This document shows positions 2,878-62,832 of a stretch of DNA of 64,000 nt, piece by piece. The notes beneath the pieces were generated by a model that saw only the letters and a list, made by a program, of their open reading frames with translations, was not told the origin of the DNA and did not search any database. Every line of letters starts with the position of its first letter. Within the stretch, counting starts at the first letter, position 1. This stretch comes from Eledone cirrhosa. Taxonomy: Eukaryota. The stretch covers positions 62,001-126,000 of the forward strand of contig CAXHJY010000988.1 of NCBI GenBank assembly GCA_964016885.1. Reading direction: 5' to 3'. Position numbers and translations under genes: made by a program.

Positions 2878-3263
2878 AATATAAAATCAAAAGATGGTCA
2901 AAAGAGTTCCATGTATTTTATTATGCGCATTTTAAAAACAAATATCATCATGGGATGATATTTGCGTTTTCATCAGATAAAATAGGGAGACATGACATGA
3001 AGCTTAAAAAACACTTGCAAGCAGGGAAGTGTTAAATCAACATTTTAAGCTTCATATCATGTCTCCCTATTTTATCTGAAGAGAACGCAAATATCATCCC
3101 ATGATGATATTTGTTTTTGAAATGCGCATAATAAAATACATGGAACTCTTTTAGCCATCTTTTGATTTTATATTATTTATACTCCAGTCCTACAAACAGT
3201 TGAGTGCTACTTATTCAATATTTGCATTGCTTTATTGTGCTACAATAAAACTCACGTCCTACA
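2878..3263 (+). mobile_element. Fold-back PLE pseudo-LTR / retrozyme-like cassette
   Basis: Inverted arms 2878-3009 and 3043-3174, unpaired tail to 3263, (TA)n on both sides, contains HHR. Confidence 0.8.
3068..3138 (+). ncRNA. Type I hammerhead ribozyme
   Basis: tattttat CTGAAGA [caaatatcatc/gatgatatttg] GAAA tgcgca TA ataaaata; 8-bp stem I, palindromic mini stem III. Confidence 0.85.
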
Positions 3264-3477
3264 TTATATATTATATATATATATATATATATATATATAT
3301 ATATATATATATATATATATATATATATATATATATATATATATATATACATATATAGATATATATATGAAAACAGGGAGAAAGAGACGGTTATGAGGAA
3401 GAAAAAATATATATATATATTTATATATATATATATATATATATATATATATATATATATATATATATATATATATA

Positions 3478-4065
3478 TTGTTATACTTTGGGAGGGTCAT
3501 GTTGCCAATAAGAAACACATGCACCAGTTGCTTTCACTTCAATTTATTATAATAAATTTATAAATTTAGGAATTTATAAATTTCCGGTTGGTCGGTTGGT
3601 TCCACAACCAGATGGTTGTTTATATATTGTCAAAAACAAGATGCCGTAGGACAGAACAAAGGAGAGGGAGGCACAAAAAACAAAGAAAAGAATCCCCAGT
3701 CACTGAAGAGGTCACAGAATGTGTGACGAAAGAACTTTGACAATATATAAACAACCATCTGGTTGTGGAACCAACCAACCGAAAATTTATAAATTCCTAA
3801 ATTTATAAATTTATTATAATAAATTGAAGTGAAAGCAACTGGTGCGTGTGTTTCTTATTGGCAACATGACCCTCCCAAAGTATAACAATATATATATATA
3901 TATATATATAGTAAACTATATATATATATATAATTTATAATAAATTGAAGTGAAAGCAACTGGTGCGTGTGTTTCTTATTGGCAACATGACCCTCCCAAA
4001 GTATAACAATAGCGGTTTCAACACATGTTTTCAGATAAAGAATCTTGCTAAACAAATTCAGAAAC
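3478..4065. mobile_element. HHR-bearing PLE-type terminal repeat, family B (inverted and repeated copies)
   Basis: 3478-3633 is the inverse of 3736-3890; third partial copy 3936-4065; terminus ctcccaaagtataacaata abuts (TA)n; same family at 43690-44300 and 59752. Confidence 0.8.
3699..3741 (+). ncRNA. Minimal type I hammerhead ribozyme (family B)
   Basis: gtca CTGAAGA g[gtcaca/tgtgac] GAAA gaac TT tgac. Confidence 0.75.
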
Positions 4066-4089
4066 GATATATATATATATATATATATA

Positions 4090-4293
4090 TAGGAACGAGT
4101 AGGACCCCGACGGCTGAGCTCAAGCCGTTTCGATGGCTAATTCTGGACAGAATTCTGGACAGAATTAGCCTTCGAAACGGCTTGAGCTCAGCCGTCGGGG
4201 TCATACTCGTTCCTATTACCCACTCTACTACCCTAAGTATTGAGTACTTTGGTGCGTTCTGGTCCACCTGGTTCCTTACCACATTTCCTTCGT
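4090..4293 (+). mobile_element. Fold-back cassette carrying the 3' half of an HHR
   Basis: Palindrome ~4090-4215 with GAAAC ggct..agcc GTC on both strands; tail to 4293; (TA)n flanks. Confidence 0.7.
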
Positions 4294-4450
4294 TATATAT
4301 ATATATATTTAAAGGTTAAACAAGGTTCAATGAATAAATCAAAGAATAAAGTTTTACAATAGATTAGAAGCACTCCACTGGTATGGTTTTCCGGAGTTAT
4401 TAATATTAATTCAAAATATTAACAAAAATAGACATTCGTGTGTTCAAGTA

Positions 4451-4517
4451 TATTTTATTATACATATTTCAGAGGTACTGAGCTATCTTCAACAGTACGT
4501 CCTCATCAGATAAAATA
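4451..4517 (-). ncRNA. Type I hammerhead ribozyme in cassette 4311-4583
   Basis: Minus strand: tattttat CTGATGA [gtactg/cagtac] GAAA tatgta TA ataaaata. Confidence 0.85.
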
Positions 4518-59749: not shown

Positions 59750-60067
59750 TATATTGTTATACTTTGGGAGGGTCATGCTGCCAATAAAAACACACGCACC
59801 TGTTAGTTTTCACTTCAATTTCGCATAGGTGAAACAGCCCATAGCATAGGAGAAAGGATAAGTGAACACTGGTGAGAACTCCAGGACGGGAAAAACTCAT
59901 CAGTACTCCACCAACATGCCAAAATAGAACATAGGGGCACATTAGAGAATATAGAGATAAAAATGATATCCACACACAGAAGAGATGCAATGCTCAGATA
60001 TATTTAGTGTAGGCATAAATACAGTTCATAAGTCTTGCTTTGCAACATTTTATTCTTTCACATTTAA

Positions 60068-60267
60068 CCTTTTAGCATTTACGTTACTCTATATTTACTA
60101 TGGTATTTTCATGGTAAACTCTTTACCTCAAACAATTATCTCGCATAATATGGAATCTATGAAATTTTGATGTTATTTATTTTGAGAACAATACCTTAAC
60201 ATCAGTATGAGCAGCCAGTTACGGCCATTTTGAACAGAATGAGGTGAGAGGTTTAAATGCTAATGGG
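60068..60267. mobile_element. piggyBac-type MITE
   Basis: TTAA|CCTTTTAGCATT ... AATGCTAATGGG|TTAA. Confidence 0.75.
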
Positions 60268-61904
60268 TTAAACTAACATGAAAAATATTGTGTTATTCTC
60301 TTCACACGTAGAAAAACATAAGCGGTTTCATGGCTAATTAACTAACCATCAGAAAACGATTATCCTCATTCTTCTGTCATTAAAGGGAGCAACAATCAAA
60401 TACATCTAACACAATCCAAGTATAATTGAGATGGTCAGTCTAGTTTGCATAATGTGCATCTAGTGGCAGCATAATTAAGCTTCAATATTTCTTAAATTCA
60501 GAGTTTGTCTAACCTTTAACACACTAGTAAATTTTCTGAGTTATTTCCCTTGACACTGCACTATCTATTAAGGGGAGATTACTCTATGGTGCATTTTGTT
60601 GCCTCCAGCGCTCTAAAGATATTAAACTAGACACATCTTATATCTATATAGTAGTAAAGGTCTCCTAATTTACATAAAATCAGACAGTTAGCATATTCCT
60701 ATTAATCTGACAGCCATTAAGAACTTACTAATATACTAACACATTGTGAAAATTTGAAAACTGTATCTTTTATATATAGCAATAAGTAAAAGAACAGAAT
60801 ATAAAAGTAAAGAAAATAGCTTTCTATTTTTATTCTTTACCAATGTATAAATATATTGTGAATGACAATTGTCAATCATTATATAAGATATATTTTAAGA
60901 CTAATTTAACTATAATTTTTAATGTTTGAATTACTTGTATTCTAAACAATTCTATTTTTCTACTGTAGGTACAAGCATGACTGTGTGGTTAAGAAGTTCA
61001 TTTTGAAACCATGTGATTTTGGGCAGCATTCCATTGTGTGGCATTTTGAGTGATTATCTTCTAATACAGTCTTGAGTTGGCCATTGTTTTTTTTTTAATG
61101 AATTTGGTAAATGGAAGGTGTAGCTGATCTCAAATTACTGAGACTCGCAGAGGAGATGACAAAAATATTGAGGGATGCTGTGCTGAAAAGGACTCCTCCA
61201 ACCCATGCAAGCATAGAAAAACGGACATAAAAATGACAACGATGATGATGATGATGATATAGACAAATGAATTTATATCAATGTACAAAATATCGACTAG
61301 TTGCACCATAACTACTCAATGTAAATTTGATGCAAAAATATCAAAAACATAATCGATAATGATATGGATAAAACATTTTTAGTATTTTGCAAATGAATAA
61401 CATAGACCCAAGCAGAACGTTAAAAATTACATTACATTAGCAATATATATATATATCAAAATTATGCATACAAAATAATCAAGGAGGAGAAATAGGAGAT
61501 TAGTTGTGAGAAGGGCACAGTGTTAGATGCAAGACAAGCAAACAATGTGAGTAAGCCAGAGAAATAATGTCAAGCAAAAAATTGTATAAGCAGAGCTTTA
61601 ATACAGAAATTAAATATTAAAGAAAACAATACCAAATTCTTGAACAACTATATTTAATGGCTGACAGTTGTTTCGGAAACCATATCAGTATTCTGCACAT
61701 ACAGATGATAATTATCGATTATAAAATCAATAATAGTAAGTGATAACAAAAAGAAAAATTTGATATGGTAACCTCATTGGAGCCGAAAAGAAAAAATAAA
61801 CATAAAAATTCAAAAATACATGTCACTGAAAGTAGGGACTACAATAAATGTAAAACTTGAAGAATACCTGTCCACATATTAGAGATGTAAGTAAGATAAT
61901 AATG

Positions 61905-62634
61905 CATTAAAAAAATTTTTTTAAATTAACTTACTAAAATTTTCACTCCAACTAATTAGTTTCTGCAATGGGATAAAGACAGTTACGTAATAAACTGTTG
62001 AGAATTCATTGCATCATCGGTGAAAATTTTAGTAAGTAAGTTAATTTTTAAAAATTTTTTTAAAATTTTCTTATTTTACGTCTTTTATATTATTGTTCTG
62101 CATCCTCCTGCATTGAACCACCTAGGTACTATGACATAACCTGTGTATTTGCTGGCATTATCGTACATCTGTACGCATATGTTAGTAGATATACTAAATT
62201 CACTATATTTATCTCCAAATCACTTATTTGTTGAGCAAACCTGCCAAAACCACTACTAATTTTTTGGTGTGTTAGTAGGCTTCTGTCATCTTACCATCCC
62301 ACTCCTACCGACTAGCCTCAGTGTCACGTGATTGATTCTTTAGAATCTGCCATTTGACCAGTGACAGCGAGATTTTCAGTACATGGAATCCAGTCCCCGC
62401 TAGCTGTTCCATTTACCAAATTATTATTATTTTTATATGAGTCCCCAGTGTCTGCGCATTGCCTGGAGACTTAGCTGAGAATAGACCTTCCCGATGACGC
62501 AATGAATTCTCAACAGTTTATTACGTAACTGTCTTTATCCCATTGCAGAAACTAATTAGTTGGAGTGAAAATTTTAGTAAGTAAGTTAATTTTTTAAAAT
62601 TTTTTTTTAATTTTCTTATTTTACGTCTTTTATA
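61905..62634 (+). mobile_element. Non-coding 545-bp-period retrozyme-like element with inverted 5' copy
   Basis: Direct repeats 62020-62090 and 62565-62634; 61920-62020 is the inverse of 62491-62595; ends in (TA)n. Confidence 0.75.
62487..62565 (+). ncRNA. Hammerhead ribozyme with CCGAUGA core variant
   Basis: cttc CCGATGA c[gcaatg/cattgc]a GAAA ctaattag TT ggag. Confidence 0.7.
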
Positions 62635-62686
62635 TATATATATATATATATATATATATATATATATATATATATATATATATATA

Positions 62687-62832
62687 GTGTTCAGTAAAGT
62701 TGTTTTGGTAAAAAACAGGAGTAAGCAGGAGAAAGCTCTCTACATTCGTAGTATCAGGTTACGATCGAGATTCAGTATAAGAATAACATTGAGGAAGATG
62801 CTAATCACAGCATCTTTCTTAATATTATTCTT
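62687..62832 (-). mobile_element. Short fold-back cassette with tail between (TA)n tracts
   Basis: aagaataacattgaggaagatgct / agcatctttcttaatattattctt hairpin. Confidence 0.55.

Follow-up and report, generated by a model that had tools for sequence, protein, structure and literature searches.

Penelope-like elements (PLEs) of the Hydra clade carry, between the hammerhead and the ATG of their open reading frame (ORF), two copies of a bulged stem-loop with a covarying upper stem and a TA word at positions -6/-5, and copies of these elements end at two positions, just before one hairpin or the other. We describe this twin motif, with its copies H1 and H2, from a stretch of 64,000 nucleotides (nt) of Eledone cirrhosa DNA (GenBank assembly GCA_964016885.1, contig CAXHJY010000988.1, positions 62,001 to 126,000 of the forward strand; hereafter the window) and from related loci and host contigs. 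Three independent data sets, namely the conservation of the motif, the ends of copies in host contigs and the junctions of related loci, support a conserved cis signal that fixes PLE copy ends. Our favoured explanation, to which we assign a probability of about 0.65, is that each hairpin would be a docking site on the RNA and would position internal target-primed reverse transcription at a nearby UA.

Architecture and conservation of the twin hairpin

The motif consists of GCTC, a variable upper stem, a 2-nt bulge on the 3' side and then GAGC-ACT, and its twin arrangement is common to one PLE clade from distant animals. In the window it precedes a truncated ORF (38867-39616, 5' part only) that begins 19 nt after the hairpin at 38829; the initial annotation of the window had correctly placed this copy just upstream of the ATG, at 20 nt. 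The ORF encodes RWR and DKT motifs that are conserved in the homologue alignment, and it has 44 longer homologues at 34-56% identity. Full-length homologues carry YRDD and a CxCx5C linker, and the four proteins read by eye lack CCHH. Judged from motifs and similarity, this ORF family matches the Hydra clade of C-terminal endonuclease-bearing (EN+) PLEs as defined in the main text of Craig et al. (2021, PMC8557442). Likenesses to the clade as presented there include RWK-like and DKT motifs, the CxCx5C linker in full-length relatives, a minimal type I hammerhead, (TA)n targets, inverted 5'-truncated copies and an optional tail. Insertion into (TA)n was found for window, host-contig and related copies alike; a hammerhead core lies upstream of the hairpins in 32 of the 45 loci with at least 300 nt of upstream sequence, and the window holds seven minimal type I cores by pattern and more by eye. 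Pfam did not recognize the Hydra N-terminal fragments (three of the seven proteins tested had matches, none of them Hydra fragments).

Related loci were fetched with a 32-protein alignment, 79 from metagenomes and 8 from a genome collection; the loci collapse into 64 families with a median protein identity of 47%. Of the 87, a usable start was available in 83, though a doubtful one in L012, L081 and L085; L068, L074, L086 and L087 were excluded. Within 200 nt upstream of the ATG, two hairpins were present in 51 loci, one in 23 and none in 9, so that 74 of the 83 carry at least one. The 125 hairpin matches in these loci compare with 0.54 in shuffled sequence, 3 on the reverse strand and none in equal-sized control stretches of ORF. 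H2 lies 12-49 nt upstream of the ATG in 57 of 59 records and H1 about 100 nt from it; the two are spaced 55-83 nt apart in 41 families, with one artefact of 0, and 90 nt apart in the window family (38739 to 38829). Of 85 hairpins, 40 have the TA word at -6/-5, where the best shuffled position reaches 17.5 (0 of 5000 shuffles), and the geometry of this word is the same for H1 and H2.

The upper stem covaries, and it does so only in the 2-nt-bulge register. We anchored 103 hairpin records without requiring pairing, retaining about 12 that were mis-anchored on the 5' side. Upper pairs 1 to 4 were Watson-Crick in 91/102, 55/92, 41/61 and 25/51 records, where 53.7, 27.7, 15.9 and 13.4 were expected from shuffling, and none of 2000 shuffles reached the observed value at any pair; registers with a bulge of 0, 1 or 3 nt gave 1 of 15 tests below 0.05. 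The bulge reads TT in 62 records, TC in 19 and TA in 17, and ACT follows in 91. The initial annotation had noticed covariation and assigned it to the outer pair. Covariation is real, but its seat is the upper stem; in the locus alignment 84 of the 87 rows have G-C as the outer pair, which rarely covaries in autonomous elements, and outer-pair changes from G-C to A-T, which could partly be CpG decay, were not counted as main evidence. In the same alignment the first upper pair is C-G in 40 rows, U-A in 26 and U-G in 9. The bulge, the covarying upper stem and the twin arrangement of H1 and H2 are additions to that annotation, as are the copies at 38739, 11368 (-), 31548 (-) and 62095.

The hairpin is also contained in the clade's own published consensus sequences (PMC8557442), in whose main text the words 'hairpin' and 'stem-loop' have no match. 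Read by eye, three of six Hydra consensi (Hydra-2_Amil, Hydra-1_Ajap and Hydra-2_Ajap) bear the exact motif, Hydra-1_Ajap twice at a distance of 61 nt; Hydra-1_Crog carries variants, and Amil-1 and Obim-1 are not readable either way. Taken together, sequence comparison indicates that the bulged hairpin belongs to Hydra-clade PLEs and their non-coding derivatives in (TA)n. Its specificity for the clade is less firmly documented, through a text search of Naiad and Chlamys consensi (the matches shown, the first five per term, all fall inside long coding sequence), three Naiad ends that lack the motif by eye, and the absence of GAGNNCT from both non-Hydra 3' regions of the window. These regions follow PLE ORFs of another type (40455-43100 and 33034-33500, both +) and are devoid of the hairpin; Pfam finds reverse transcriptase (RT) and GIY-YIG domains in 40455-43100, and their motifs suggest that the ORFs are Neptune-like. 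Among viral contigs there was no Hydra relative, no twin-motif match and no relative of the PLE ORF at 40961. Loci L080-L087 are animal Hydra-clade PLEs in contigs filed as bacterial genomes, likely host contamination.

Copy ends at the two hairpins

The 17,011 contigs of run X1 that we aligned to 38590-38920 represent loci other than the window, although the run may derive from the same sample as the window. The two largest (TA)n loose ends listed for this run fall after 38736, which is 2 nt upstream of H1, and after 38825, which is 3 nt upstream of H2, with 145 contigs each; a further 275 smaller loose-end rows exist beyond those listed. Mapping of (TA)n junctions relative to the motif, a check that the initial annotation had proposed, thus yields two sharp peaks. 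Summed contig depth drops from 1.5-2.2 million to 28 thousand across H2, a figure that is not a copy number. The same two ends were recovered in organisms B and C (one study), with 3+1 and 1+1 contigs, and neither of them was among the loose ends listed for run X7. Restriction-site associated DNA sequencing (RAD-seq) read ends, which reflect restriction sites, and a loose-end table dominated by a high-copy SINE (short interspersed element) were not used. The high-copy family behind both peaks has an altered hammerhead first box (CAGAAGA, 38667-38690, +); no variant of at least 20% was seen at the altered base in host contigs, so that the change may be fixed in that family.

Junctions of related loci give the same picture. 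Among the 83 loci, 43 were without a 3' end and 10 without a family reference; the 30 that were aligned included 10 that ended with the contig and 1 that continued in tandem, which left 19 junctions, some of them in loci that share families but are separate insertions. Fourteen of the 19 lie 0-6 nt upstream of a hairpin, six at H1 and eight at H2, with a chance probability of at most 3e-11 if ends are uniform and of 9e-7 if ends are restricted to TA/AT. Two alignments over-ran (L048 and L071), and BLAST places the end of L048 2 nt before H2. Positional enrichment and covariation, the two properties that the initial annotation expected of a larger set of copies, were both found, the covariation against shuffles that ignore relatedness. 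Six ORF-bearing copies (L007, L016, L017, L031, L032 and L042) have their sense-strand end 0-6 nt before H1. L050 (2436-2829) and L061 show a (TA)n run shared by two different Hydra families inserted tail-to-tail; one stops 2 nt and the other 3 nt short of its own H2.

The two classes of end, 145 to 145 among host contigs and 6 to 8 among related loci, correspond to the optional tail of the Hydra clade. Both tail borders lie at one short distance upstream of the motif, the known PLE 'tail' is thus H1 plus the spacer, and the hairpin pair would explain why the tail is optional. Note that the tail described in the main text of PMC8557442 measures 30-40 bp, a length that does not agree with the 55-83 nt found here (90 nt in the window family) between two copies of one motif.

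We also observed 5' junctions at or just before a hairpin, upstream of the ATG, in L003, L007, L024, L052, L077 and L082. They suggest that copies of unit length were made from circular or tandem RNA, or that a bound hairpin caused stalling.

Hairpins and cassettes in the window

The window is AT-rich and dense in microsatellites, with fragments of several PLE ORFs, RTE-like RT pieces, short interspersed elements (SINEs) and a mariner. Between its (TA)n runs lie many short cassettes, several of them head-to-head foldbacks and several with hammerhead cores (Table 1). The initial annotation regarded the cassettes that share the hairpin as unrelated; most of them are likely to be non-autonomous clients of Hydra-clade PLEs. 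Its nine hairpin strings all occur where it located them, and six of the nine fit its strict pattern NCTC..GAGN'RCT, the misfits being 8633, with AAGT (a decayed pair), and 39852 and 58801, without RCT. The bare pattern matches 8 distinct window sites against a mean of 2.98, and 2 of 100 shuffles reach 8, a modest excess over chance; the signal lies in its position.

A boundary just before the motif, also part of that annotation, holds when tailed and tail-less sister copies are compared: the hairpin starts 1-8 nt past the boundary in 8 of 11 families (background 1.9%), a figure inflated because the descriptor was tuned on the same sites, and the distance is mostly 2-6 nt, not 5-10 nt as first given. 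The fragment at 11832-11880 does end just before the position of the 38829 copy, at 3 nt. Distances from hairpin to next TA run are 52-91 nt, and 135 nt for the long-loop copy, which fits single hairpins at cassette ends being H1 copies with H2 beyond the junction. A covariance model built from metagenome hairpins only and then run on the window placed 38829 (expectation value, E, 1.1e-5), 38739 (E 0.0046) and 4222 (E 0.016) at the top, and picked up 3181, 4397 and 11368 (E 3.3) weakly amid 6 chance matches. This poor recovery of the cassette hairpins indicates that the non-coding families are diverged versions. Rfam, at E<=1, gave 146 matches in the window, none of them a hammerhead and none on the hairpin, nearly all being microsatellite artefacts.

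Table 1. Hairpins, copy ends, hammerhead cores and associated features of the window
Feature	Position	Strand	Basis
Hairpin H1, ORF-linked Hydra-clade family, long loop	38739..38787	+	descriptor and metagenome model, E 0.0046
Hairpin H2, 19 nt before ATG	38829..38847	+	descriptor and metagenome model, E 1.1e-5
Tail-less copy end, ATAT microhomology, 2 nt before H1	38733..38736	+	145 X1 contigs into (TA)n
Tail-bearing copy end, TAT, 3 nt before H2	38823..38825	+	145 X1 contigs into (TA)n
Minimal hammerhead-like core, first box CAGAAGA, upstream of H1	38667..38690	+	read from sequence
Truncated putative Hydra-clade PLE ORF, 5' part, RWR and DKT	38867..39616	+	motifs, homologues
Tail-only fragment between (TA)n runs, homologous to H1 loop and spacer	11832..11880	+	
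Hairpin, tail of foldback cassette 2884-3264, 4 nt past tail-less arm end	3181..3208	+	
Hammerhead core and stem II, foldback cassette 2884-3264	3076..3122	+	
Hairpin, tail of foldback cassette 4092-4293, 5 nt past boundary	4222..4248	+	E 0.016
Hairpin, tail of hammerhead-bearing cassette; next TA run 89 nt from hairpin start	4369..4397	-	
Decayed hairpin (AAGT), perfect 6-bp upper stem, foldback cassette 8354-8706	8633..8660	+	
Long-loop hairpin, foldback cassette 11234-11734	11306..11368	-	E 3.3
Hairpin with 1-nt bulge, 3' end of two-hammerhead non-coding unit	30955..30977	-	
H1-type hairpin, upstream unit of two-hammerhead non-coding pair	31496..31548	-	
Candidate H2, 74 nt after 31548, 1-nt bulge, degenerate 3' side	31447..31474	-	
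Hammerhead core, upstream unit	31650..31680	-	pattern
Hammerhead core, downstream unit	31028..31049	-	pattern
Hairpin 4 nt past end of 537-nt direct repeat (39643/40180)	39852..39884	+	
Possible degenerate H2, GCCC..TA GAGC	39954..39976	+	by eye; fails descriptor
Hairpin with TT bulge, without ACT, short 5'-truncated cassette	58801..58823	+	
Variant hairpin GTTC..TT GAAC, second pair changed on both sides	62095..62121	+	
Variant TCTC..TA GAGA-GCT, type as in locus L066	62734..62770	-	

The two hammerhead cores at 31680 and 31049 lie 631 nt apart in diverged units, and 39643/40180 is a partial tandem. Several candidates were rejected. An ACTC/GAGT hairpin near 33424 has no bulge and sits behind a different GIY-YIG type; pattern matches at 31373, 42608 and 21614 were taken as chance, the first two not being at cassette ends; and a TATC..GATA reading of the 43951 tail has the wrong spacing.

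A further hammerhead family (3479-4066, 43690-44330 and 59760-59830) has sharp tail-less and tailed ends and a tail of about 55-59 nt without the GCTC/GAGC hairpin. This family is probably a client of a different PLE clade, perhaps with a signal of its own. At 37445-37890 there is a perfect 202-nt zero-loop palindrome with a 41-nt tail lacking the hairpin and a degenerate hammerhead core in both arms. The window also contains an 11.4-kb array of a 9-mer (45597-56975, about 1253 copies), 36 copies of a partly self-complementary 38-bp unit (26578-27931), and a mariner-like element with 108-bp inverted ends (58859-59754) in the TA run directly behind the 58801 cassette.

Proposed start signals, precedents and significance

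In ORF-bearing copies the 3' end of the sense strand falls short of one or the other hairpin, and the insert lacks the hairpin that lies behind the junction. This is what a start signal would be expected to show, and of the two roles that the initial annotation had left side by side for its conserved cis signal, priming is favoured over termination. In the mechanism that we propose, a read-through or circular transcript would carry H1 and H2 past the 3' end of the element, and the GIY-YIG endonuclease would nick a (TA)n target. The freed TA end would then pair with a UA-rich word that lies 3-8 nt upstream of a bound hairpin; complementary DNA (cDNA) synthesis would begin there and leave the hairpin behind the start point uncopied. 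A start at H1 would produce a tail-less end and a start at H2 a tailed one, the tail of 55-83 nt consisting of H1 plus the spacer. Non-coding cassettes that retain hairpins would be mobilized in trans. We infer that the RT binds hairpin RNA, rather than that the endonuclease acts on the motif. The nearest precedent is PAc, a Poseidon-clade PLE from Anolis, for which the main text of Frangieh et al. (2024, PMC11167929) reports that reverse transcription in vitro uses an uncleaved RNA template and starts at two internal positions that form the borders of the tail; AT-rich target cleavage and a stem-loop at the start site are further likenesses.

Several observations weigh against this docking mechanism. 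Three of the 19 junctions are 12, 27 and 65 nt off, and boundary families 4011/43951, 37848 and 44424 have a tail and no recognizable hairpin. The covariation shuffles do not remove relatedness among loci, and covariation at pair 1 is largely a difference between H1 (T-A) and H2 (C-G). Single-hairpin folds are unremarkable (15 folded, z from +1.3 to -1.7), with the lower stem present in the minimum-energy fold at 7 of 11 member sites. The metagenome-built model found 4 of the nine initially listed sites at E<=10 and missed the other five. G-U outnumber A-C pairs by 28 to 19, thin evidence for an RNA strand over structure at DNA level, and the nearly invariant lower stem and ACT fit sequence recognition of either RNA or DNA. 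Finally, PAc belongs to another clade, and its stem-loop, described in PMC11167929 as AC-rich, is not the present motif.

Could the motif instead be read on DNA, as duplex or extruded single strand, by the GIY-YIG endonuclease? The enzyme would nick TA 4-6 nt upstream and trim or resolve tandem intermediates, so that copy ends would be cuts. The conserved TA at -6/-5 matches the endonuclease's target preference, the 3' strand AGNNCT is self-complementary as a pattern, and the 5' junctions at or near the hairpin in the six loci named above would be explained. Craig et al. attribute the tail to endonuclease-mediated resolution in their main text (PMC8557442), and the Penelope endonuclease of D. 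virilis needs tail sequence for recognition, as cited in the text of Frangieh et al. (PMC11167929). However, target-primed cDNA is joined to the target from its first base, and a motif beyond the junction would not exist in DNA; a covarying upper stem of free sequence argues for a folded single strand; and starts at both tail borders were obtained in vitro with the related PLE (PMC11167929, main text). On balance we find endonuclease cutting an unlikely origin of the ends, though the one that deserves most attention after priming.

A second proposal would confine starts to H2 and have H1 stop second-strand or snap-back synthesis, the tail-less inverted arms arising by cDNA self-priming and stalling at H1. 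Foldbacks with 0-nt loops and arms up to 99.5% identical accord with it, as does the self-priming proposed for head-to-head PLE palindromes in the portion of PMC3846280 consulted, and 8 of 11 listed inversion joints fall in H1 or the spacer, suggesting that H1 impedes synthesis. But in six ORF-bearing copies the sense-strand end falls 0-6 nt upstream of H1, as expected of first-strand starts, and H1 and H2 share the same upstream TA geometry. We therefore rate this proposal as quite improbable. The position of H2 just before the ATG (12-49 nt in 57 of 59 records) could also point to a role of the twin hairpins in expression alone (translation start or internal promoter) or in packaging, with junctions merely following adjacent AT-rich words; given that non-coding cassettes retain the hairpin, that junctions cluster far more tightly than TA availability explains, and that H1 has the same geometry though about 100 nt from the ATG, we see little prospect for this account. 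A chance pattern in AT-rich repeat DNA, for which some 3 bare-pattern matches would be expected in the window and to which the unremarkable individual folds might be credited, is refuted by the 125 matches against 0.54 in related loci, the two sharp host-contig peaks and the 14 of 19 locus junctions.

If the hairpins are docking sites, both might be used in one event by two enzyme subunits, one on either side of the break, which would generate head-to-head foldbacks with one tailed and one tail-less arm. In this scheme of programmed twin priming, the Hydra-clade RT, which is related to telomerase, would act as a dimer, grip both hairpins on one RNA and prime from both ends of a double-strand TA break. 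We advance this only tentatively, as an idea with the odds somewhat against it. Six of the seven TA-flanked foldbacks in the window combine a tailed and a tail-less arm (p about 0.06), and the unmixed seventh belongs to a family without the hairpin. Paired use is also suggested by the 145:145 ratio, by an inverted tail-only piece in L010 that ends 6 nt before H2 and is joined head-to-head to the main copy, by the mixed foldback of L086, and by the inversion joints within H1 or the spacer (8 of 11 among those listed in host contigs). Zero-loop perfect palindromes (37445-37848) speak against it, since snap-back synthesis accounts for them no less well.

The Hydra clade, its hammerheads, the tail and the existence of two start sites are already published; the hairpin and its duplication are apparently not. 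We found no description of either in the text of open-access papers, to which the search was confined. In PAc the start sites lie inside the ORF and the stem-loop is AC-rich, and the main text describes no repeated motif at both sites, although supplementary Fig. S1B/S2C may bear on this (PMC11167929). Non-LTR (long terminal repeat) retrozymes are short non-coding hammerhead units that have been proposed to be mobilized by PLEs (Cervera and de la Pena 2020, PMC7229834; Li et al., bioRxiv 10.64898/2026.07.22.740005). The passages of these papers that we consulted identify no recognition signal, with no match to 'hairpin'. The 537-nt and ~600-nt units of the window may belong to this class, and the hairpin is a candidate for the missing recognition signal of retrozymes.

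RNA stem-loops that recruit an RT, or two primers on one RNA that give an inversion, are familiar from L1 twin priming, from the 3' stem-loops of long interspersed elements (LINEs) and SINEs, and from hepadnavirus epsilon. In L1 the second primer anneals at internal positions chosen at random, the stem-loops of LINEs become part of the insert, and epsilon primes within its own bulge. The present signal differs from all of these: it is situated downstream of the proposed start, does not enter the copy and is present twice.

With the motif as a marker, the ends of Hydra-clade elements and of their non-coding clients can be annotated from sequence, and it suggests a scarless start signal of possible use in RNA-templated gene insertion. 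If paired use is true, twin priming would explain the tail, the inverted pseudo-LTR and the in-trans mobilization of hammerhead mini-elements together, and 'UA + 4 nt + hairpin' would be a portable start signal that writes any upstream RNA into DNA, itself remaining uncopied. For the class of RTs closest to telomerase, a short, clade-wide, duplicated motif at a fixed spacing from the junction makes it possible to address by direct mutagenesis how PLEs choose their start, why a tail is found at only some ends and by what means parasites of the retrozyme type recruit the enzyme.

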